Shown here piece after piece: positions 401-11,162 of a stretch of 64,000 nt of DNA. The notes under the pieces were generated by a model. It saw only the letters and a program-made list of their open reading frames with translations. It made no database searches and was not told the DNA's origin. Every line of letters begins with the position of its first letter. Position 1 is the stretch's first letter. A program made the translations under genes and the position numbers. Source of the stretch: an uncultured bacterium (GTDB lineage Bacteria; Chlamydiota; Chlamydiia; Chlamydiales; JAJFMA01); NCBI GenBank assembly GCA_964436955.1, contig CAYTFC010000002.1, positions 583 through 64,582 on the forward strand. The letters are read 5' to 3'.

Positions 401-430
401 CCCAACTTGTCCCTTTAATGGCAAGTTGGG
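401..430 (+). terminator. Stem-loop just after the truncated ORF
   Basis: cccaacttg (401-409) is the reverse complement of caagttggg (422-430), with a 12-nt loop. No clear U-tract follows. Confidence 0.3.
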
Positions 431-569
431 GTTGAATGAAACAGCTAGCGCGACACTACATGGTATAGATAACCTGTAAAGCGGCTTTACATCCATATAT
501 CCCTGTAAAAAATCCGCTTGGTTTGATAGAGTCATTTTTTTTGTTGCCCCTTTTGCATGAGGAGTACTT

Positions 570-2402
570 GTGTCAGAGGAACTAGATGATGCCTATCGCT
601 CTTTGTATGACGTAACGATTCCAGACTTGGATTACTATTTACGTCAGATTGATTGTCGCGATGGATGTCCTGTCAATACCGACGGTCGTGGCTACATGTT
701 GGCTATCCATGCTGGCAATCTTTTGGAAGGATACAAGATTGCGCGTGGACCCAATCCGTTTGCATCCGTCTGTGGGATGATTTGCGGAGCTCCTTGCGAA
801 ATCACATGTCGTCGCGATCGCGTTGACAAAACGCTTACTATTCGAGCACAGAAGCGTTACTTGGATGAGTGGTTTGGGCATGATCAAAACGCACTCAATC
901 GTTCCTTAGAATTTAGTTACGCACGCGGATCGATTAATTCTACACCTAATGGCTTAAAAGTGGCGTGTGTGGGAGCTGGCGTAGCTTCATTGACATGTGC
1001 TCATGATCTTCTTCGTTTGGGTTATGCAGTTGACGTTTTTGAATCAATGGCCCTGCCAGGCGGCATGTTAACGTACGGTGTTCCTAGCTACCGACTGAAG
1101 AATAGACTCGCTGTAGCAGAATGCCGAGCTATCGAGCATTTAGGCGCCAATGTCTATTACAATACTAAGATCGGTCGTGACATCACGATGAACCAGCTGG
1201 AAGAAAAGTATGATGCCATCTTCATTGGCATAGGCTTATGGAAATCTCGGGACTTGCCAATCCCAGGAGCTGAAGGTCCTGATGTCATTCGCGGGGTGGA
1301 GTATCTGCGGGTTTTGTGTGCGGACGATCGATGGCCTATCGGGAAGCGGATTGTTGTTGTGGGCGGAGGTAACGTTGCGTTTGACGTAGCACGTTCCTCT
1401 GTGCGTAATGGTGCGGACAGTGTGACAATGGTATGCTTAGAATCGCGTGATGAACAGACAGCCGATGAATTTGAGATCGAAGATGGCATGGAAGAAGGTA
1501 TTACGATTGTCAATCGAGTAGGGCCGATATCAGTAGAACGTGACACGGAAGGAAGAGTCAGCGGCCTGCGCGTTCAACCTATTTATAGCCTATTTGATAG
1601 TCAAGGCCGCTTTGCACCGAAATTTATTTCAGATTCACAGTATGTCATTCCATGCGATACTTTGGCCCTGGCTATTGGACAAGCCATGGATCCCGCATTT
1701 TTAGATGGCTGGGATAAGCGTAATCAACTGGCACTAGACAGAGGCCTTATTAAAACAGAGCGAGGCACAGGACGCACTAGCGTACCTAAAGTGTATTCTG
1801 GTGGTGATGTGGGATTTGGCCCTGCTCTTTTTATTACGGCCATTCGCCATGGGCAAGAAGCGGCTAGAAGCATTGATAGCGACTTGCGTGGCACGACCCC
1901 CTACCGCGAGTATACCGCTGAATTTACAGAGATTGTACCGATGCGTGACAAGTCCTACTTACGTACTCGTTGGGCCCTACCAACTAGCCAACCTGTGCAT
2001 AGCCGCACAACGAATTTAGAATATGTTGAGAACAACTATACCGATGCTGCAGTCCATCAGCAGGCTAACCGTTGTTTGCAATGTCATGTTAGCCCTGTTT
2101 TCGATGGCAGCCTGTGCATTAAGTGCAATGGATGCGTCGATGTTTGCCCGACCAACTGTCTAAAGCAAGTGCATGTAAGCCAGCTTAACCTCGATGTCGG
2201 TGATGGCAGTTTGCGTCGTGCCGTCGATAACTTTTTTGGTGTCGATACGATGGAAATGACTCAGGAAGAACTCCATTTAATGGGCTCCGCCATGTTAAAA
2301 GATGAAGACTTGTGCATCCGCTGTGGATTGTGTGCAGAAAAGTGTCCCACCCAGGCAGTGACAATGGATGCTATGAACTATTCCTTTAGATGGATAGGAT
2401 AG
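570..2402 (+). CDS. NAD(P)H-dependent FAD oxidoreductase, glutamate synthase small-subunit (GltD)-like, with a C-terminal 2x[4Fe-4S] ferredoxin domain
   Basis: N-terminal Cys cluster region (CPVNTDGRGY...CGMICGAPCEITC). Two dinucleotide-binding motifs (VACVGAGVASL; VVVGGGNVAFD). Two CxxCxxCxxxCP motifs (CIKCNGCVDVCP, CIRCGLCAEKCP). GTG start at 570 preceded by GAGGAG. Confidence 0.8.
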   Translation: MSEELDDAYRSLYDVTIPDLDYYLRQIDCRDGCPVNTDGRGYMLAIHAGNLLEGYKIARGPNPFASVCGMICGAPCEITCRRDRVDKTLTIRAQKRYLDEWFGHDQNALNRSLEFSYARGSINSTPNGLKVACVGAGVASLTCAHDLLRLGYAVDVFESMALPGGMLTYGVPSYRLKNRLAVAECRAIEHLGANVYYNTKIGRDITMNQLEEKYDAIFIGIGLWKSRDLPIPGAEGPDVIRGVEYLRVLCADDRWPIGKRIVVVGGGNVAFDVARSSVRNGADSVTMVCLESRDEQTADEFEIEDGMEEGITIVNRVGPISVERDTEGRVSGLRVQPIYSLFDSQGRFAPKFISDSQYVIPCDTLALAIGQAMDPAFLDGWDKRNQLALDRGLIKTERGTGRTSVPKVYSGGDVGFGPALFITAIRHGQEAARSIDSDLRGTTPYREYTAEFTEIVPMRDKSYLRTRWALPTSQPVHSRTTNLEYVENNYTDAAVHQQANRCLQCHVSPVFDGSLCIKCNGCVDVCPTNCLKQVHVSQLNLDVGDGSLRRAVDNFFGVDTMEMTQEELHLMGSAMLKDEDLCIRCGLCAEKCPTQAVTMDAMNYSFRWIG

Positions 2403-2403
2403 C

Positions 2404-2544
2404 ATGTTGATAGACCTGTTTTTGACCCTTGCAGCCGGTTGTGCAGCCTTACTCGTGTTTTTGTTTTATTGGCGCAAGGGACAGTTTGACGACGCCGAGG
2501 ACATCAAATACCAGATGTTTCGTGATGAAAATGAAGAACCTTAG
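2404..2544 (+). CDS. ccoS: CcoS/FixS-like cbb3 oxidase maturation peptide (46 aa, not in the ORF track)
   Basis: My translation is MLIDLFLTLAAGCAALLVFLFYWRKGQFDDAEDIKYQMFRDENEEP*. It has one TM helix followed by W-R-K-G-Q-F-D-D and an acidic tail, as I recall for CcoS/FixS. The ATG lies 1 nt after the upstream stop, with AGGA 4 nt upstream. Confidence 0.6.
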   Translation: MLIDLFLTLAAGCAALLVFLFYWRKGQFDDAEDIKYQMFRDENEEP

Positions 2545-2607: not shown

Positions 2608-3120
2608 GTGATGCCTAAGCTACGCAACTCATTAAATGTGGATCCAGACGATAAGGATCCCCGTATCTCCCGTCGATCCTTCCTTGCCCTGCTAGGGGTG
2701 GGAGTAGGAATTGGCGCGCTAAACCTAATTGGAGCGTCAGTATTGGGCTTTTTATATCCTAATGCCATGAAGATTCCCCCATCGGTGTTTTCGTTAGGAC
2801 GACCCGATGACGTGCTTGCGACTCAAGGAAAGGTGTTCGTTCCCAAACAAAAGGTATTTATCGATTCTGAAAATGGAAAAGTAAGAGTGCAAACCGCTGT
2901 TTGCACACATTTAGGCTGCACCGTTCACATGGTAGAAACAGGATATCAGTGTCCTTGCCATGGATCCACTTATGACCAGCTTGGCCACAATACGGGTGGT
3001 CCGGCGCCGAGCCCATTAGTGTTTTATAAATGCTTTTTGGGTGCCTCAGGAGAAATTATGTGCGACAAATCTCAGACAACCTTGGATGACAAGGAAGCCT
3101 GGTTTTCGCCTAAAGTATAA
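2608..3120 (+). CDS. Rieske [2Fe-2S] subunit with a twin-arginine signal
   Basis: Tat motif SRRSFLALLG. Rieske boxes CTHLGC and CPCHGS. The start is GTG 2608 or ATG 2611. Confidence 0.9.
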   Translation: MMPKLRNSLNVDPDDKDPRISRRSFLALLGVGVGIGALNLIGASVLGFLYPNAMKIPPSVFSLGRPDDVLATQGKVFVPKQKVFIDSENGKVRVQTAVCTHLGCTVHMVETGYQCPCHGSTYDQLGHNTGGPAPSPLVFYKCFLGASGEIMCDKSQTTLDDKEAWFSPKV

Positions 3121-3132
3121 GAGCTTGTAACT

Positions 3133-4458
3133 ATGGCAGTTTTCCAGGGATCACCGCGTGAATCATGGCTGGAGTACCTCGCTAACCTCCCGCGCATGTT
3201 CATACGCTCGATCTTTCGACATAACTATCCTAATAATGATGTCGATCGCTCTGAAATCGTATTTAAGAACTTCTTTCTGCACTTCCATCCAGTCAAGTGT
3301 CACAAAAATAGTACCGATCCCTTTTACACATTAGGTCTTGGGGCTATCTCAACCAGCCTATTTTTGATACTGACTTGGACCGGTGTTGTTCTGATGTTCT
3401 TCTACATACCCACTGTGGACCGTGCTTATGACATCATGAAGGATTGGCAGGATACGACACCATTTGCGCAGATGTACCGCAACATGCATCGTTGGGCAGC
3501 GCATTTGATGGTGATGTTTGTGATGCTGCACATGTCGCGGGTCTTTTATACCGGCTCCTATAAAGGAGAACGCCGCTTTAATTGGGTGATCGGCGTCATT
3601 CTGATGGTACTGACGCTCCTGCTATCATTCACTGGATATCTTCTACCTTGGGACCAGTTAGCCTTTTGGGCTATTACGGTAGGATCCGAAATTGCAGGGT
3701 ATGCCCCCAATCTGCCTGGCTTTCAGTATAATGTGAACCGTGTCATGCTACTAGCCTCCACTAGCGTAGGTCAGGATGCTCTCATTCGCTTTTATGTGCT
3801 GCATGTGGTGGTACTGCCATTGGTGGCCGGCACCTTGATTGGTGTACACTTTTGGCGCATTCGCAAGGATGGAGGACTATCGCGCCCTCCCGACCGTGTC
3901 AGACCCGATCCATTAAGAGTCGTCCAACGATCCGATAGCAAAGAGGTATTTGCTCCGGGAGTGAAACGAACCTATGGTTTGATGGAGCTTGTACGAGGCA
4001 CCTGTCCCACCGTAGATAAGGGGCCATACAACTTTGTCTTTAGCTGGCCGAACCTTCTGCGTGCGGAGATGGTGGCCTTCTTACTTACTTTGGTGCTAAC
4101 GTTGGCGCTTTCTTTCATTGACGCGCCATTGGAGGAACCTGCTAACCCCGCCGCTCCTCCGAACCCTTCCAAAGCTCCCTGGTACTTTCTTGGGCTGCAG
4201 GAAATGGTAGCTTACAGCGCCTTCTGGGGCGGCGTTGGTATTCCTACGCTCATGGTGCTGGGTTTGATGGCAGTACCCTATCTCGACCGTAATCCTCATG
4301 GGACGGGCTATTGGTTCCATCGCAGCCGCTATTTGGCGATCTTTTTGTGGACACTCTTTATGACCAGTCAAGCTCTACTCATCGTCATTGGAACGTTTTT
4401 TAGAGGAGCTAACTGGGGATGGATTTGGCCGTGGACAGAAACTTTCTCGCGGCATTAA
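3133..4458 (+). CDS. Cytochrome b (b6 and subunit-IV-like parts in one 441-aa polypeptide)
   Basis: Polytopic membrane protein with cytochrome b signatures (RNMHRWAAHLMVMFVMLHMSRVF; LPWDQLAFWAITVG; FYVLHVVVLP). Lies directly after the Rieske gene. Confidence 0.9.
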   Translation: MAVFQGSPRESWLEYLANLPRMFIRSIFRHNYPNNDVDRSEIVFKNFFLHFHPVKCHKNSTDPFYTLGLGAISTSLFLILTWTGVVLMFFYIPTVDRAYDIMKDWQDTTPFAQMYRNMHRWAAHLMVMFVMLHMSRVFYTGSYKGERRFNWVIGVILMVLTLLLSFTGYLLPWDQLAFWAITVGSEIAGYAPNLPGFQYNVNRVMLLASTSVGQDALIRFYVLHVVVLPLVAGTLIGVHFWRIRKDGGLSRPPDRVRPDPLRVVQRSDSKEVFAPGVKRTYGLMELVRGTCPTVDKGPYNFVFSWPNLLRAEMVAFLLTLVLTLALSFIDAPLEEPANPAAPPNPSKAPWYFLGLQEMVAYSAFWGGVGIPTLMVLGLMAVPYLDRNPHGTGYWFHRSRYLAIFLWTLFMTSQALLIVIGTFFRGANWGWIWPWTETFSRH

Positions 4459-4481: not shown

Positions 4482-7400
4482 GTGCGATCGGAACTCTATC
4501 AAATATCCTTGATCCTACTCCTAGTGGTATCCGCCGCACTCTTTGGCGTGTTCTTGGCGCGCGAACTCTTTCCGCAATACAGAGTTTTTCAGCAGGATTA
4601 TATTGCGTTAGAGGAATTTCGCTCATCATTAACGCATGAGCCAATGGCGCCTTTTGACATTGGAATTAGACAGATAGTTCTCACACAAAGTAATAACGGC
4701 CCTGAAATTGTTGATCGCTGCACAAGTTGCCACGTGGCGCTTCAACTTAGCCACTTTTCCCCCACTAAACCTGCGCAGGATGTCAATGGCGAAGCCTTGC
4801 TTGATGAACAGGGATATCCCGTTTCAGTTCCGAACGAATCCTATGTGTGGAAGCAGTTAGATGAACGTATAGCTGAACTCAAATCGCAGGATAAGCTATC
4901 TGAAGCCGAGCAGTTGGAGTCCCTGAAGAAGGCATACATCGGCGGGGCCGAGGTGGATATGACCAAAGCCTTGGCTATGCATCCCCTCATAGGTAAGGAA
5001 ACCCGCCCCTTTCAGTTTCATCCCATTGAAGAATATGGCTGCACCGTATGTCATAATGGCAACGGTAGAGCCCTTACCATTGAAAAGGCTCATGGGCCTG
5101 TATTTGATGGCCAATACCCGACTTCGTTTGAAGGGCCAGTACCGCAATTTTTAGAGATTGACGAACAGAACGATCCCTCCTTTTCAAGAGTGTTTAATCA
5201 TAAGCCAGGTCACGAACTTTTGTTCCAGACAACACCCATCTTCGTGGGAGAGCTAATCCAAGCTAACTGTGTACAATGTCATTTATCATCCACTTCTCAG
5301 CTTAATAGCGTGGTGACGACCGTATCTGAGCTTAAGGGACAGTCCGCACAGCAAACAAAGGACGTTCAAAAAGCCTATGAAGACGAAAAGAAGGCGTTGG
5401 CAACCCTGCTTATCCTTCGTTCCGATATTCTAAAAAATGGATTTGGGAATACGCTAAAAAGACTAATAGATAACGAGACGAACTATCACCTCACACAGTT
5501 AGAGCGCAATGCAGCGGCCGCGCAAGTGATCTATCTGACCCAGGCAGTTGCAAATCTATCCGAAAGTGACCCCACAGGACAACAGCAAGCCGCTGTAGCC
5601 AGAATTCAAAGGGATATCGTTATTTCGTTAGGCACAGAAGATCTTGCTTCGGCCTTAGAAAAAGAACTACAGGGCAAAGATAGCAACTCATCCGCGCTAT
5701 TCGATACATTTGTTAAAACACATAGTCAATCGAAAGGACAACTCTTTATCAAAGCAGCAGCAGTCGATAGACAGCAGATATCTCTAAAGCATATCGACAA
5801 AGCGGAAAGCTCTTTGAGCAATTCTCTCGGTCAAGAGCAAGTTAAGAAAGCGGCGGCCACGGATATTGATCGCATGATCAAATGCTACTTACAAGGTGAG
5901 CAGCTCTATATTTCTCAAGCATGCTACGCATGCCATCGAATCGCTGGTTTCGCTCGTGGAGGTGTTGGCCCAGAACTTACCAATGAAGGTTTCAAGTATC
6001 CGTGGTTCATTAAGCAGTCAGTCGTATGGCCTCAGGCAGATCTACCCAGCTCTACAATGCCAAACTATCGTTTGGATCACCAAGAACTGGAAGCTCTAAC
6101 CTGCTATATGTTGGCTCAAAAAGGCCGTCCCAACGCGGTTTCTCAGGTGGACTACAATACAACCATCAAACAATGGGAAGAAGGTAAGAAGAAGCCTTGG
6201 GAAGCTCCGGTTCCACCATCCAAGATACATGATTTACATTACGGAATGACAGTATTTGCAACTGAAGGATGCGCAGCTTGTCACCGCTTAAAGGGATTTC
6301 AATCCAATGTTGGCTTCGCGGTAGAGAAAGACAAGGTACCTACTTTTGATGAGATGTATCGTGAACGCAACTGGTTTACAAGTTTGTTCCCAGAAGACCT
6401 AATGGGAAGCCAAATAGTGAAAGTGATCGAAGAAAATGCAGCGGAACTGGACAAGCGTATTGTAGATCATGTGCGACATGATTCCATTATTGAAGAAATT
6501 CAAAGGGACCACCCACAAATAATCGAAGCTCTCTATTCAGGCTTTAGATACGCCTCACGCGCTAAGCCAGACAGCCAATGGAAGGAACGTGTTGAGCGAG
6601 TCTTAAAGACCTATATTCAGGAATATGGTCTAGGACGGCTTGTAGGACCCAGGCCCAATTGGTCGGGCATCTATCGCTCTGATGAATGGCTGATTGCGCA
6701 TTTTTACAATCCCGGCGCCCATGTGGCACGCTCCATTATGCCGGTGTTTCCGTTTGATGAGACCAAGTTCTATGCTCTTACTTATATGCTAGACATTCTG
6801 GCCCCATTAAACGCTGCTAATGTACGTGAAATTTGGGATAACCGCGGGTTTAACCCTGAACTAGCGTTTCATATATATTGTGCTCAATGTCATGGGGACT
6901 TCAGGCAAGGCGATGGACCGGTGGCCCAATGGCTATACCCTATCCCTAAGAACCTACGTAACGGCTCATTCCTAAACAACCTAACCAGAGAGCGAGTTGC
7001 GGAGTCTATTATACATGGCGTTAAGGGAACTCCAATGCCGCCTTGGGGAGAAATAGCCAGAGACAAGCCATTCCCCATAAAAATTCCAGTATTAACCGAA
7101 GAGGAAGCGCATCAACTCACCAATTGGCTGTTTCTGAGTCTCCCAGGTGGTGATGTAGATGAACCCGATAACATGAAGTGGAAGTATCAACCTGAAGACG
7201 TGATCAGGGAACTCCACGGTGAAGGCGATCAACTTCATAGCAATCTATCGTCGGTGTCTCACTTATTGGCATCTAACAAGCCAATAGCAATAACATCACC
7301 TTCTCAGCAGGAAGTCGATGACATTTTTGACGAACGTAATTATCCCATACCTGGAGTTAAGCGTAAGGCTTACTACATAAAAGAGAAGTACTACACACCG

Positions 7401-8438
7401 TTGAATATAGCCCAAGGCGAGAGTGTTTTCATCGAAAACTGTGCTATCTGTCATGGTAAAGAAGGAGCCGGTAATGGCTTAAGAGCCGGTAGTATGACGG
7501 AATCAAAGCCTCGTATGCTTACAAATCTGGATTGGATAGCAACTCGTGATGACCTGCGCTTGCTTCAATCCATCAAATTTGGCGTTCTTGGTACCTCCAT
7601 GACTCCCTGGGGCGATTTTACAAGCACGCTGCAAAGATTGCAATTGGTCATGTACATTCGCAGCCTGAGCCGAGAGCATGCACTGCGTGAACATCTTTCG
7701 GACATCATCTATCAATCCTTCGATCGCGCCTTGGAAACTGTGCGGCAGTCTCAAATAGAAGAGGACGTTAAGTTTCAAGAACTGGATAAAGCGTACAATA
7801 CAGCAAAGTCTTTTAAGATAGATCAGGAAGCCAATCTAGCGATAAACAAAACGGCCGTACCAGCACTTGTCGATGCCTATCAAAAAGAACTGTCGCTTGG
7901 GGAACAACTTAAGAAACAAGAAACTATTGATAATGCAATCTCTGACTTAATTGCTGAAATAAAGAAGCAACGCGATATTTTTACTTCACTGGGAAGTACA
8001 GCTCTAGCATCTTTAGGTGAAAGTGATGTTTCAGACGGGATTTTAGACTTAATAGGTCTAAATGCTGTCCATTATGAGTACCATGATGGAAAGCTCACCT
8101 TGGATAATTATTCCGCTGATCCAGCCGTCATTGTTAACACCGGTAAGCAAGTACTTGCTTTGCTGGAAAAAGACATCCCCTCACTAGAAAAAGAACTGAA
8201 AGGCATGGACGCACAAGCGGCTTCCACCGAAGCACGTGAGAGAATTGCTGAACTAAACCAACGTGTGAAGGGGCTTAATCAAATTAAGGTCCTAGTACTA
8301 ACAACACTAGAGGACTCCGCACGCTCAAAACAGAGACAGGAAAGCCTTGTGGAACGCATTCATGGTCTCAAAGAAGCCTTAAGGCAAAGCGAACCGGCTA
8401 CTCAAGAAAAAGCGAAACAAAGAAATACCAATGAATGA
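4482..8438 (+). CDS. Membrane-anchored heptahaem c-type cytochrome (1318 aa) with a CcoP-like di-haem module and a coiled-coil tail
   Basis: N-terminal TM helix. Seven CxxCH motifs: CTSCH, CTVCH, CVQCH, CYACH, CAACH, CAQCH, CAICH. The last two sit in class-I cytochrome c contexts (CAQCHGDFRQGDGP...MPPWG; CAICHGKEGAGNG...MTPWG). GTG start preceded by AAAGGGAG. Confidence 0.85.
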   Translation: MRSELYQISLILLLVVSAALFGVFLARELFPQYRVFQQDYIALEEFRSSLTHEPMAPFDIGIRQIVLTQSNNGPEIVDRCTSCHVALQLSHFSPTKPAQDVNGEALLDEQGYPVSVPNESYVWKQLDERIAELKSQDKLSEAEQLESLKKAYIGGAEVDMTKALAMHPLIGKETRPFQFHPIEEYGCTVCHNGNGRALTIEKAHGPVFDGQYPTSFEGPVPQFLEIDEQNDPSFSRVFNHKPGHELLFQTTPIFVGELIQANCVQCHLSSTSQLNSVVTTVSELKGQSAQQTKDVQKAYEDEKKALATLLILRSDILKNGFGNTLKRLIDNETNYHLTQLERNAAAAQVIYLTQAVANLSESDPTGQQQAAVARIQRDIVISLGTEDLASALEKELQGKDSNSSALFDTFVKTHSQSKGQLFIKAAAVDRQQISLKHIDKAESSLSNSLGQEQVKKAAATDIDRMIKCYLQGEQLYISQACYACHRIAGFARGGVGPELTNEGFKYPWFIKQSVVWPQADLPSSTMPNYRLDHQELEALTCYMLAQKGRPNAVSQVDYNTTIKQWEEGKKKPWEAPVPPSKIHDLHYGMTVFATEGCAACHRLKGFQSNVGFAVEKDKVPTFDEMYRERNWFTSLFPEDLMGSQIVKVIEENAAELDKRIVDHVRHDSIIEEIQRDHPQIIEALYSGFRYASRAKPDSQWKERVERVLKTYIQEYGLGRLVGPRPNWSGIYRSDEWLIAHFYNPGAHVARSIMPVFPFDETKFYALTYMLDILAPLNAANVREIWDNRGFNPELAFHIYCAQCHGDFRQGDGPVAQWLYPIPKNLRNGSFLNNLTRERVAESIIHGVKGTPMPPWGEIARDKPFPIKIPVLTEEEAHQLTNWLFLSLPGGDVDEPDNMKWKYQPEDVIRELHGEGDQLHSNLSSVSHLLASNKPIAITSPSQQEVDDIFDERNYPIPGVKRKAYYIKEKYYTPLNIAQGESVFIENCAICHGKEGAGNGLRAGSMTESKPRMLTNLDWIATRDDLRLLQSIKFGVLGTSMTPWGDFTSTLQRLQLVMYIRSLSREHALREHLSDIIYQSFDRALETVRQSQIEEDVKFQELDKAYNTAKSFKIDQEANLAINKTAVPALVDAYQKELSLGEQLKKQETIDNAISDLIAEIKKQRDIFTSLGSTALASLGESDVSDGILDLIGLNAVHYEYHDGKLTLDNYSADPAVIVNTGKQVLALLEKDIPSLEKELKGMDAQAASTEARERIAELNQRVKGLNQIKVLVLTTLEDSARSKQRQESLVERIHGLKEALRQSEPATQEKAKQRNTNE

Positions 8439-9897
8439 TACAGCTACAGTCCCCTCAACGCCACAATTTGAAGATCTACCCGTCAAGCTGTTTGTGTATC
8501 CCGCCATTGTTTTTATGGTCATAGGGATGTTTTTTGGCGTCTTTATTTCCTTTAATGGAATGGTGATGCCTGATTATTGGGCTGGTGAATACATTCACTT
8601 TGGGCGCATGCGTCCGGTACATGTTGGCCATGTTCTATTCTTATGGTTGTTGCCTGCTAATTTTGGATTGATTTTCTATATTACTCAAAGATTGTGCGGT
8701 GTGACGCTATGGAGTCGCTCGCTGGGAATATGGTCTGCAGCGCTTTACTGGCTTGCGCTTGTTCCAGGAACCTATTCATTTCCTTGGGGAACCAACTTTG
8801 GGTGGGAATATGCCGAGTTTCCCATGTGGTTGGGTTGGCTTCCGGTAAAATTCATGCTCTTATTTGCTTGGATACTGATCACCATTAACATTTACATGAC
8901 CATAGCCAACCGCAAGTATGATAAGCTCTATGTTTCCCTCTGGTATATCCTAGCCACGTTACTGTGGGGAGGGATTAGCTACTTCGCAGGAAACTGGGTA
9001 ATCAACATGGTACCCCAGGGGATCTCTCGAGTGAATATGAGTTTTTTCTATGTTCATAATTTGGTGGGGTTAATTTTTACACCCATGGGCTTAGCCATTG
9101 CTTATTATTTCTTACCCAAAATGGCAAAGACGCCTATCTATAGCCATAAACTATCCCTCATTGGTTTTTGGTCCATTGCATTTGTGTATGCATGGGTAGG
9201 ATCACACCATATTATTCACGGACCCATGTCACAGTGGATTCAAACAGTAGCGATCATTTTTTCCGTTTGGCTGTTTATTCCCGTATGGTCAGCGGTTACA
9301 AACCTATTCGGTACACTTAAAGGCAATTGGCATAAGTATAATGAGAATGCGGCCATCCGATTTATCATAATGGGAACGCTTTTTTACTTGATGGTGAGTA
9401 CGCAAGGAACATTCATGGCTGTGCGTAACGTCAATGAAATCACATCCAAGACAGATTGGATCATTGGACACGCTCATATGTCGCTCTATGGTACGTTCAC
9501 CTTTTTCGCAATAGCGGGCATTTATGGGGCCTTGCCGGCCCTTTCCGGAAACCCCCTCTATTCAAAGCGCATGGCTGATTGGCATTTTACGCTAAACATG
9601 CTAGGAGCTTCCCTCATGTTCATTGCACTGCACGTTGGTGGCTTTTTCCAAGGTCTTCAATGGGCTACATGGGCTGATGGCGATAGCTACCGTGTATTTC
9701 AAAATAACCTCAGTAAGCTCCAATTTTTGGACACTATTGCCAGCATGCATTACTTTTGGCTGACACGTACAATTTCCGGTCTGTTTATTTTTGCCGGAAA
9801 CTGCATCTTTGTCGTGAATGTCTTTAATACCATTTTACTCAAGCCACGGCCTCGTCCAGTCCAGGCCCAAACCGTAGTTGTAGGAACGCTAGCATAA
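8431..9897 (+). CDS. ccoN: cbb3-type (C-family) haem-copper oxidase subunit I
   Basis: A 488-aa polytopic protein with about 12 TM helices and conserved His patches (WVGSHHIIHGPM; IGHAHMSLYG). The next gene is FixO-like. Its start overlaps the upstream stop (ATGAATGA). Confidence 0.85.
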   Translation: MNDTATVPSTPQFEDLPVKLFVYPAIVFMVIGMFFGVFISFNGMVMPDYWAGEYIHFGRMRPVHVGHVLFLWLLPANFGLIFYITQRLCGVTLWSRSLGIWSAALYWLALVPGTYSFPWGTNFGWEYAEFPMWLGWLPVKFMLLFAWILITINIYMTIANRKYDKLYVSLWYILATLLWGGISYFAGNWVINMVPQGISRVNMSFFYVHNLVGLIFTPMGLAIAYYFLPKMAKTPIYSHKLSLIGFWSIAFVYAWVGSHHIIHGPMSQWIQTVAIIFSVWLFIPVWSAVTNLFGTLKGNWHKYNENAAIRFIIMGTLFYLMVSTQGTFMAVRNVNEITSKTDWIIGHAHMSLYGTFTFFAIAGIYGALPALSGNPLYSKRMADWHFTLNMLGASLMFIALHVGGFFQGLQWATWADGDSYRVFQNNLSKLQFLDTIASMHYFWLTRTISGLFIFAGNCIFVVNVFNTILLKPRPRPVQAQTVVVGTLA

Positions 9898-9899
9898 TT

Positions 9900-11162
9900 A
9901 TGACCGATCCTCATATCACTCCAAAAATCGAAAAATCCGCTATCTACACGATGATCGGAATTGCTTTGCTATTTCTATCATCCATTTTAGCTACCGTTTT
10001 GGCTCCAAATCTCATTGACCCCAGCTGGGTGGAACCATCCAGTCACTTTCAGGTACAAATGTATGAAGTGGCTGATGCTCATCTGTACGCAGCACGTGCT
10101 CTGCCGGGATCGCCTACACTCGATTATGTGCACCATTTAAAGCAGGGATATTCCCTGATGGCGTTTCAAGAAACGGAACAACTGCGCATCCTCGCAGATC
10201 CTACCTTAGATCGTTATGTAACTCGCTTTGGTGAAAAGGATCTTAAGCTGACTACAAAAGTAATGCTGCTACGTAAACCCACCGGAGACTCCTTTGATAA
10301 AGCCGAAAAGCTTCGTGTAGAGGCCCAAAAGCTGTGGGAAGCCAAGAATCCAAATTGGAAGGATCGGGGACTAATACGCATGGATTATGGTGTGCTGGAG
10401 CTCTATGACCCAAAAATAGACGAAGCCTTTGCGCAAGCACGCACGGAGGGAACTTCAGAACACTATGTCGATAAAAATTTTACCATCTTGGATGGCCCCA
10501 AGCAAAAATATCATAACGATACAGGCGTCATATATGTTCTCAATCCCGAGGAATATCGCTTCCGTCACGTAGGCATTGGAAGCATTCAAGGGTATCGCTA
10601 CGACCCCAACGGCCAGTCTGTCAAAGATATTGCGCAATTAACTGGACCTGAATTGGGTTTTATATCTCGTAAAGATCTCATAGCTATGGGTGAGCACATC
10701 TTTGCGATAGAAGGATGCTGGTATTGTCATACAGATCAAAGCCGCACACTGATTCAAGACTGTGTACTCAATGGTGGAGCAGCCTATGCCGCCCCACCCT
10801 CATCAGGTAACGAGTATATCTTTCAGAAAATCACTTTTCCAGGCACGCGCCGTATCGGCCCAGACCTGGCTAGAGTGGGAGTTAAGCGGCCCAGTCGAGA
10901 TTGGCATAAAGGGCACTTCTGGCAGCCTCGTACGCCAAGTCCGGGAAGCATTATGCCATCCTTTAGGCATTTCTTTGATGATGACCCTCGCGGACAATCC
11001 TCTAGCCAAATTGGAATCCCAAACTATCGCTTTGAGGCCATGTACCAGTATTTGATGACCAAGGGAACGCGCATTACCGCGCCAACGCAAGCCTGGTGGT
11101 TAGGTAAGGACCCCTTGCATACGACCGAGATTATTGAAGGACTGAGAACCGTAGAGCCTTAG
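9900..11162 (+). CDS. ccoO: cbb3 oxidase monohaem subunit II (CcoO/FixO-like) with a long insertion between the TM anchor and the haem domain
   Basis: TM anchor at aa 15-35. The haem motif CWYCH appears only near aa 273. A FixO-like block follows (GPDLARVGVKRPSRDWHKGHFWQPRTPSPGSIMPSF). Confidence 0.8.
   Translation: MTDPHITPKIEKSAIYTMIGIALLFLSSILATVLAPNLIDPSWVEPSSHFQVQMYEVADAHLYAARALPGSPTLDYVHHLKQGYSLMAFQETEQLRILADPTLDRYVTRFGEKDLKLTTKVMLLRKPTGDSFDKAEKLRVEAQKLWEAKNPNWKDRGLIRMDYGVLELYDPKIDEAFAQARTEGTSEHYVDKNFTILDGPKQKYHNDTGVIYVLNPEEYRFRHVGIGSIQGYRYDPNGQSVKDIAQLTGPELGFISRKDLIAMGEHIFAIEGCWYCHTDQSRTLIQDCVLNGGAAYAAPPSSGNEYIFQKITFPGTRRIGPDLARVGVKRPSRDWHKGHFWQPRTPSPGSIMPSFRHFFDDDPRGQSSSQIGIPNYRFEAMYQYLMTKGTRITAPTQAWWLGKDPLHTTEIIEGLRTVEP

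Follow-up and report, generated by a model that had tools for sequence, protein, structure and literature searches.

Why should a soluble flavoprotein with an NAD(P)-binding core be encoded at the head of an operon for a membrane-bound Rieske/cytochrome b complex? The question is raised by a stretch of 64,000 nucleotides (nt) from an uncultured bacterium of the Chlamydiales (JAJFMA01; GenBank assembly GCA_964436955.1, contig CAYTFC010000002.1, positions 583 to 64,582 of the forward strand), which is referred to here as the window and whose numbering is used throughout. An open reading frame (ORF) at positions 570–2402 of the plus strand, open across 610 codons from a GTG start at 570, encodes an iron-sulfur (Fe-S) flavoprotein of the GltD/NfnB fold, as judged from Pfam and NCBIfam domains, an AlphaFold2 (AF2) model and conserved synteny. 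It is followed by a CcoS-like ORF and by genes for a Rieske protein, cytochrome b, a multihaem cytochrome c, CcoN and a CcoO-like protein. Whereas canonical bc1 and b6f complexes have no cytoplasmic flavoprotein, the flavoprotein is the constant first gene of this operon. An earlier note on this DNA, made from the sequence alone, had described a GltD-like NAD(P)H flavoprotein with a ferredoxin domain, encoded as the first gene of a Rieske/cytochrome b operon, 1 nt upstream of the CcoS-like ORF and about 200 nt upstream of the Rieske gene. Gene order and domain analysis (Pfam Fer4_20, Pyr_redox_2 and two Fer4 motifs) bore out this description: the stop codon TAG occupies positions 2400–2402, the CcoS-like ATG lies at 2404, and 205 nt separate the flavoprotein stop from the beginning of the Rieske ORF at 2608.

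The results presented below point to the flavoprotein as a dedicated cytoplasmic partner, likely a subunit, of the Rieske/cytochrome b complex, which may serve as a wire to NAD(H), electron flow from menaquinol to NAD+ being favoured. We put this reading forward tentatively, its chances falling a little short of even.

Linkage to Rieske and cytochrome b genes in the Chlamydiales

The best protein matches bear source names of environmental chlamydiae (Parachlamydiaceae, Chlamydiales). Among 40 relatives, every full-length copy of the flavoprotein gene had the cytochrome b gene on the same contig and strand. Fourteen relatives representing many families were compared by tblastn. The order flavoprotein-CcoS-Rieske-cytochrome b was found in 13 of them, while the fourteenth showed a 4.6-kb gap; the CcoS-like peptide occupied the equivalent position in 13 of the 14 (E ≤ 1e-3). 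A wider sample comprised 250 genomes of the same order, each at least 85% complete. The flavoprotein was present in 63 and the cytochrome b in 66 of these genomes, and all 63 carried both. The earlier note had proposed to check whether the linkage holds in related genomes. In 60 of the 63, both genes shared contig and strand, with cytochrome b starting 0.6–1.6 kb downstream, or 4.6 kb in one case; the three exceptions were fragmented assemblies in which the flavoprotein and cytochrome b genes lay on separate contigs. Three genomes contained cytochrome b only: one cluster was cut at a contig start, one case was unresolved and one concerned a distant cytochrome b type. Flavoprotein identity across chlamydial families ranged from 69 to 87%, comparable to cytochrome b and above Rieske. 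Since the protein is this well conserved in other chlamydial families, ORF 570–2402 is not a chance reading frame.

Two side observations were made in these genomes. One chlamydial assembly contains a second cluster (G514:C155:292-3926) with an adjacent flavoprotein (40% identical) and cytochrome b (50%); this could be a second complex gained by horizontal transfer, or else the contig is a contaminant. Two relatives, G005 (94% complete) and G017 (84%), possess CcoN and lack both cytochrome b and the flavoprotein, so that a cbb3 oxidase can exist without the Rieske/cytochrome b module.

Linkage and phylogeny across bacterial phyla

At a clustering threshold of 50% the chlamydial family collapsed into one representative, and the next relatives, about 45% identical, displayed the same full-length architecture. 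For a scan across phyla, one genome per species was searched with an alignment of nine sequences, which yielded 80 loci whose 10-kb flanks were analyzed by tblastn. Of 34 informative loci with full-length homologues (36–44% identical to the window protein), 31 had the Rieske and cytochrome b genes directly after the flavoprotein gene. Linked clusters were found in Ignavibacteriota, Acidobacteriota, Verrucomicrobiota, Lentisphaerota, Nitrospirota, Hydrogenedentota, Planctomycetota, Calditrichota, Actinomycetota and Chlamydiota. About 44 shorter homologues were 30–35% identical to the window protein and had no aligned C-terminal ferredoxin; none of them was linked to Rieske/cytochrome b, and most originated from Bacillota, Thermodesulfobacteriota and Chloroflexota. 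Outside the chlamydiae, CcoN, CcoO and CcoS were absent within 10 kb of the Rieske/cytochrome b genes in most linked clusters.

In a maximum-likelihood tree with 106 rows and E. coli GltD as root, a single clade (Shimodaira-Hasegawa-like approximate likelihood ratio test, SH-aLRT, 96) united 47 linked proteins, three proteins from Armatimonadota and one locus truncated at the end of its contig. This clade excludes E. coli GltD as well as the unlinked homologues, so that the clustering with GltD named by the earlier note as a refutation was not seen. Within it, the chlamydial flavoproteins group together with full support, on a stem as long as 1.13 substitutions per site. Their sisters, joined with weak support (85), are the Armatimonadota trio and one protein each from Ignavibacteriota and Holophagaceae; the gene clusters of the latter two also hold CcoN and CcoO.

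The earlier note had called a link of this kind in a chlamydia-like genome unexpected. This was overstated, as the arrangement is conserved across many chlamydial families and about ten phyla and the pairing is already found in the literature. Dibrova in 2013 and Kartal in 2011 and 2013 are said to have remarked on the flavoprotein pairing for this cytochrome b subfamily. Dibrova et al. [quoted passage not shown] We infer that the window cytochrome b belongs to this subfamily. The window protein falls inside the clade of the flavoprotein-linked clusters of subfamily G (SH-aLRT 96), from which the chlamydial clade differs by the CcoS-like peptide after the flavoprotein and by a Cys56-His57 pair in cytochrome b.

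Domain architecture and predicted fold of the flavoprotein

Neither a signal peptide nor a transmembrane helix was detected in the 610-amino-acid (aa) flavoprotein. Its N-terminal part matches the two-cluster Fe-S domain of dihydropyrimidine dehydrogenase (DPD) and GltD (Fer4_20, aa 28–103; positions 651–878), in which C29, C33, C68, C72, C76, C80 and E77 are invariant columns. The flavin adenine dinucleotide (FAD) and NAD(P)-binding Rossmann domains follow (Pyr_redox_2, aa 130–428; positions 957–1853). The second dinucleotide site reads GGGNVAFDVAR...VTMVCLE, and its Glu291 (1440–1442) is invariant in 35 sequences. By the usual Rossmann rule, the glutamate of this CLE motif would select NADH rather than NADPH. 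The C-terminal Fe-S region (positions 2073–2369) comprises two Fer4 motifs (aa 509–600) with invariant cysteine sets, namely RC502xxC505 and two CxxCxxCxxxCP motifs (C516–C526 and C582–C592). The latter pair is predicted to form a 2x[4Fe-4S] ferredoxin. In the protein a GltD/NfnB-like core is thus flanked by an Fe-S domain at the N-terminus and a ferredoxin at the C-terminus, which together would hold about four clusters.

The best NCBIfam match was PRK12771 'NAD(P)-binding protein', an uninformative model, for which the protein scored 398 bits, short of the cut-off of 516. The AF2 model, calculated from an alignment of 35 sequences, was confident throughout including the ferredoxin tail (predicted local distance difference test, pLDDT, 91.7; predicted template modelling score, pTM, 0.89). 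Chain A of NfnABC (9bov_A), StnC of StnABC (8oh5) and NfnA of Thermococcus NfnABC were the top matches in both sequence and fold (sequence E = 2e-79; Foldseek E = 1e-47; query-normalised TM-score 0.69), followed by NfnB, GltD and DPD. Modules of the NfnABC/StnABC type (9bov, 9bp5, 8oh5, 9n5u) and NfnB (4ylf, 5jca) are the closest matches in sequence and fold. In contrast to the window protein, these enzymes are soluble, work with NuoF/NuoE-like or NfnA partners and carry the NADPH motif YRR, whereas the partner proposed here would be a membrane cytochrome b.

The partner cytochrome b, the Rieske protein and the quinone

The cytochrome b gene (3133–4458, plus strand) encodes 441 aa with fused b6-like and subunit-IV-like parts and the Qo motif APWY, which was common to all 46 loci where the motif search located it. 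[quoted passage not shown] As a specific marker of flavoprotein linkage His50 was rejected. The Rieske/cytochrome b clusters L124 (G042:C6) and L126/L131 (G040:C66) also exhibit the histidine of the LHLHP motif together with APWY; no flavoprotein gene was present within the approximately 1 kb examined on their Rieske side, and their genomes hold other linked copies. The haem cn cysteine (CxGG) is gone in the window cytochrome b (FYTLGLG) and in most of the main clade.

Two further features of the n-side were observed. A Cys56-His57 pair (3298–3303) is specific to chlamydiae (PVKCHK), other phyla having V, S or T at the cysteine position. It lies in the segment just ahead of helix A, close to His50, and might be a cofactor ligand. 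Residues 1–49 (3133–3280) form a cytoplasmic N-terminal extension with the motif (S/A)(I/V)FRHxxP...R, which recurs in those cytochromes b of the subfamily that were compared (anammox-type, planctomycete, Ignavibacteriota and Holophagaceae). The extension is a candidate docking surface for the flavoprotein.

The Rieske protein (2608–3120, plus strand) displays a Tat-type RRSFL signal, box I CTHLGC and box II CPCHGSTY. CPCHGSTY was found in all chlamydial proteins and its serine is near-universal across the linked set. The serine and the tyrosine each raise the potential of the cluster, and two anammox Rieske proteins were measured at +303 and +335 mV despite menaquinone use (PMC12954380). MqnA and MqnD are present in the source genome, while neither MenD nor ubiquinone hydroxylases scored above cut-off in it. 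The organism therefore very probably makes and uses menaquinone, synthesized by the futalosine route.

Comparison with anammox complexes

Kartal (2011, 2013) and de Almeida (2016) reportedly carried out earlier work on Rieske/cytochrome b complexes of Kuenenia with oxidoreductase subunits. The earlier note stated that Rieske/cytochrome b clusters of anammox planctomycetes include a GltD-like subunit for which bifurcation has been proposed, and this is confirmed by Hauser et al. (2025; PMC12954380). In their account of the Kuenenia stuttgartiensis Rieske/cytochrome b complexes, Kuste4570 and Kustd1483 figure as putative NAD(P) oxidoreductase subunits that contain FAD and four Fe-S clusters and are proposed to form NAD(P)H by taking the low-potential electron of quinol bifurcation via an extra haem b (PMC12954380). 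In AlphaFold3 models the ligand of this haem is His43 in Kuste4571 or His62 in Kustd1481, and Kuste4570 was modelled on the NfnABC structure that also tops the matches of the window flavoprotein (PMC12954380). According to the passage in PMC5600118 that cites it, complexome analysis in Kuenenia found the NAD(P) oxidoreductase subunit in the membrane complex.

Anammox-type genomes were picked by paired matches of about 810–840 aa and confirmed by gene order and by the exact positions of His43 and His62. PF18582 (HZS_alpha) was rejected as an anammox marker, as it is not anammox-specific. Each anammox-type genome contained two full-length flavoprotein homologues inside Rieske/cytochrome b clusters, one arranged as Rieske-flavoprotein-b6-subunit IV and the other as Rieske-b6-flavoprotein-subunit IV. 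Depending on the cluster type, the first histidine of LHLHP was residue 43 or residue 62, in agreement with the published numbering (PMC12954380).

The two systems have much in common. In both flavoproteins an Fe-S domain is followed by an FAD/NAD(P) core and, at the C-terminus, by a ferredoxin with two clusters, which makes about four clusters in total, and both are encoded within a Rieske/cytochrome b cluster that includes a multihaem cytochrome c. The cytochromes b are of the same subfamily, with APWY as Qo motif and aligned N-terminal histidines; the potential-raising serine of the Rieske protein and menaquinone use are shared as well. In contrast, the anammox flavoproteins are only 30–34% identical to the window protein and fall in separate clades outside the main clade. 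They carry YRR, as do E. coli GltD and most unlinked homologues, whereas the window protein and the main clade have CLE. The haem cn motif CxGG is kept in the anammox cytochromes and absent from that of the window, b6 and subunit IV are split there and fused here, and the flavoprotein gene is internal there but first in the operon here. Finally, the exergonic branch leads to nitrogen-oxide chemistry in anammox bacteria and to a cbb3 O2 reductase in the chlamydial operon. An approximately unbiased (AU) test of a single clade with the anammox subunits (46 rows, LG+G4) gave p = 0.09, by which a single origin is neither supported nor rejected. Given the separate, more distant clades, the different motifs and the AU result, orthology with the anammox subunits is not established.

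Proposed role and direction of electron flow

Taken together, these data suggest how the complex may work. By means of a single FAD, about four Fe-S clusters and a site for NAD(H), the flavoprotein would wire the NAD+/NADH pool to the cytoplasmic face of cytochrome b. There, an additional haem may be bound by His50 at the junction of the two cytochrome b monomers. Menaquinol would be oxidised at the Qo site. One electron would pass via the high-potential Rieske protein and the multihaem cytochrome c to the cbb3 oxidase and O2, while the other would travel through the b haems, the Fe-S wire and FAD to reduce NAD+. The NADH could be re-oxidised by the ion-pumping NADH dehydrogenases Nqr and Nuo, so that the low-potential electron would be recycled via an 'NADH loop' in place of the usual Qi site. 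Because menaquinone is combined with a Ser/Tyr Rieske protein, the b haems may be low enough in potential to reduce NAD+, following the symmetry argument of PMC12954380.

As to direction, we lean slightly towards the outward flow from menaquinol to NAD+. It is favoured by the pattern of menaquinone with a high-potential Rieske protein, the lost haem cn, the oxidase within the operon and a flavoprotein that is never lost. Since O2 reduction is encoded in the same operon, a strong electron pull would be provided, and since the flavoprotein is never missing from genomes with the complex, an obligatory outlet fits better than an optional input.

Several points weigh against this proposal. Association of the flavoprotein with the membrane complex is argued from sequence evidence, and the direction of flow from potentials assigned by motifs. 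Chlamydiae are heterotrophs rich in NADH, and an NADH-type site would equally suit catabolic NADH oxidation. Three full-length loci inside the linked clade, all from Armatimonadota, are unlinked (L021:9869-13095, L023 and L048). Moreover, two cytochromes b of the same subfamily (L124 and L126) share the histidine without an adjacent flavoprotein gene.

The alternative that survives best reverses the flow. The flavoprotein would then be an NADH dehydrogenase module on cytochrome b that passes electrons from NADH through the n-side haems to menaquinone at Qi, and the operon would represent a self-contained NADH-to-O2 chain, like ferredoxin and ferredoxin-NADP+ reductase (FNR) feeding b6f in cyclic flow. 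We regard this as somewhat less probable than the outward flow, though not by much. All the linkage evidence counts equally for it. Glu291 in the CLE motif, as opposed to YRR of NADPH enzymes and anammox-type subunits, suits it too, NADH being the catabolic carrier, and the organisms that carry the cluster are mostly aerobic or microaerobic heterotrophs, which need NADH oxidised, not made. Furthermore, in the view of Dibrova et al. small cytochromes b anchor dehydrogenases in the membrane, and chloroplast b6f has FNR among its subunits (PMC5600118). The chloroplast enzyme is likewise an NAD(P)-linked flavoprotein at the negative side of a b6-type complex (PMC5600118), but it has an unrelated fold and no Fe-S wire and is not co-encoded with the complex. 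On the other hand, electron transfer from NADH to menaquinone at the flavoprotein site would conserve no energy. Ion-pumping Nqr and Nuo have been reported for chlamydiae (PMC9816063); next to them an optional input should sometimes vanish, whereas the flavoprotein is kept in 63 of 63 genomes with the complex. With a Ser/Tyr Rieske protein and menaquinone, the span of potentials should also be wider than a simple Q cycle requires, and for anammox bacteria Hauser et al. dismissed the NADH-input direction on energetic grounds (PMC12954380).

A second alternative places the flavoprotein outside the complex, either as a co-expressed helper (e.g. a reductase that, like the Fe-S protein CcoG, provides electrons for haem or copper handling in cbb3 assembly) or as a co-regulated soluble NAD(P)H:acceptor reductase. 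Such a role would fit translational coupling to the CcoS-like assembly peptide and the three unlinked Armatimonadota members of the clade. At L021 (Capsulimonadaceae), the sole Armatimonadota locus inspected, a HesB/IscA-like Fe-S cluster biosynthesis gene lies about 0.7 kb downstream. As oxidase genes are missing within 10 kb of most non-chlamydial linked clusters, however, the conserved partner is cytochrome b and not the oxidase. The anammox-type flavoprotein gene sits among the genes for Rieske, cytochrome b and subunit IV, and adjacency across about ten phyla would be unusual for plain co-regulation. A helper or assembly role is thus unlikely.

That an ordinary GltD or a soluble enzyme of the NfnB/SudA type is sited here by chance is highly improbable: the core is indeed homologous to GltD, NfnB and DPD, but the protein scores below the cut-off of every named family, the genome lacks GltB, no NfnA-like or B/C-type gene of bifurcating enzymes is adjacent and the clade is distinct from E. 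coli GltD and the unlinked homologues. GltD identity was rejected with 168.8 bits against a cut-off of 447.7 for TIGR01317 and 210 against 482.95 for TIGR01318, and the NfnB-type 'gltA' family (TIGR01316) with 243.7 against 471.75; scores for the AegA and YgfK families were likewise far under the curated cut-offs. The source genome (3.05 Mb, 98.75% complete) contains one GltD-like gene in total. A search of it for GltB (PF01645) returned only a partial match of 31.5 bits in a 348-aa frame (G000:C41:17315-17551, L018), which probably belongs to another FMN-dependent enzyme and is no real GltB. Inspection of the locus itself revealed no adjoining NfnA-like (FNR-like) or NuoF/NuoE-like B/C genes. 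GltD, the outgroup of the tree, is homologous to the window protein in its FAD/NAD(P) core and in the Fe-S domain at the N-terminus; the window protein differs by its added C-terminal ferredoxin. The refuting condition of the earlier note, a grouping with bona fide glutamate synthase, was thus not borne out.

Neighbouring genes and signals of the operon

The CcoS/FixS-like peptide downstream of the flavoprotein (2404–2544, plus strand, as are all genes of the operon) has 46 aa and matches Pfam FixS with 27.2 bits against a cut-off of 23.1. Downstream of cytochrome b, a multihaem cytochrome c of 1318 aa (4482–8438) is composed of class-I/CcoP-like and FixO-like pieces and is likely the electron bridge from the Rieske protein to the oxidase; the short FixO-like piece comprises aa 721–762. 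The start of the gene for CcoN, subunit I of the cbb3-type oxidase (8431–9897), overlaps the stop of the cytochrome c gene. The CcoO-like protein (9900–11162) has 420 aa. Its FixO domain is confined to aa 262–365, with approximately 230 uncharacterised residues ahead of the haem domain.

Upstream of the operon lies an unrelated ORF of 249 aa with hydrophobic stretches, which ends at position 393. Eight nt past its stop begins a perfect 9-bp inverted repeat with a 12-nt loop (CCCAACTTG / CAAGTTGGG; 401–430, plus strand), read from the sequence. It is possibly the end of the upstream transcript; having no T-run, it was not called in the terminator scan. The 176-nt gap before the flavoprotein gene contains a σ70-like promoter match, TTTACA-16 nt-AAAAAT (486–513, plus strand), which is a consensus match only, as the promoter scan that gave it returned fewer promoter-type matches than in shuffled sequence. 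A Shine-Dalgarno-like GAGGAG (559–564, plus strand) is located 5 nt upstream of the GTG start. A separating terminator, which the earlier note considered as evidence against a common operon, was not found: the terminator scan detected no terminator-like site between the flavoprotein gene and Rieske (2402 to 2608).

Significance

A literature search for a chlamydia-specific account of the flavoprotein found none. Reconstructions of chlamydial respiration name only PetBD and cbb3 (PMC9816063) and thereby omit a conserved, highly constrained component. The general pairing is already known, and the chlamydial operon adds a member to a biochemically unsolved group. We know of no member of the wider flavoprotein-linked Rieske/cytochrome b group that has been studied biochemically. 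Such complexes have so far been discussed almost solely for anammox bacteria, which are hard to grow. Environmental chlamydiae have the partnership as an obligatory trait and many menaquinone-using aerobes share it; here it is joined to an O2 reductase. Easier experimental systems are at hand in chlamydiae grown in amoebae and in cultivable Acidobacteria, Planctomycetes and Verrucomicrobia.

If NAD+ reduction by the complex is true, it would represent a new mode of energy conservation with low-potential quinones. More broadly, and this we consider doubtful for now, menaquinone-using aerobes of about ten phyla might replace the classical Q cycle by an 'NADH loop'. Each menaquinol would be split at the Rieske/cytochrome b complex, with one electron passing to O2 by way of a directly attached cbb3 oxidase and the other raised to NAD+ by way of an extra haem and a four-cluster flavoprotein, and NADH would return via the ion-pumping Nqr or Nuo. 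If this is true, quinone-based bifurcation with a soluble low-potential product would operate beyond anammox bacteria, in ordinary aerobic heterotrophs.

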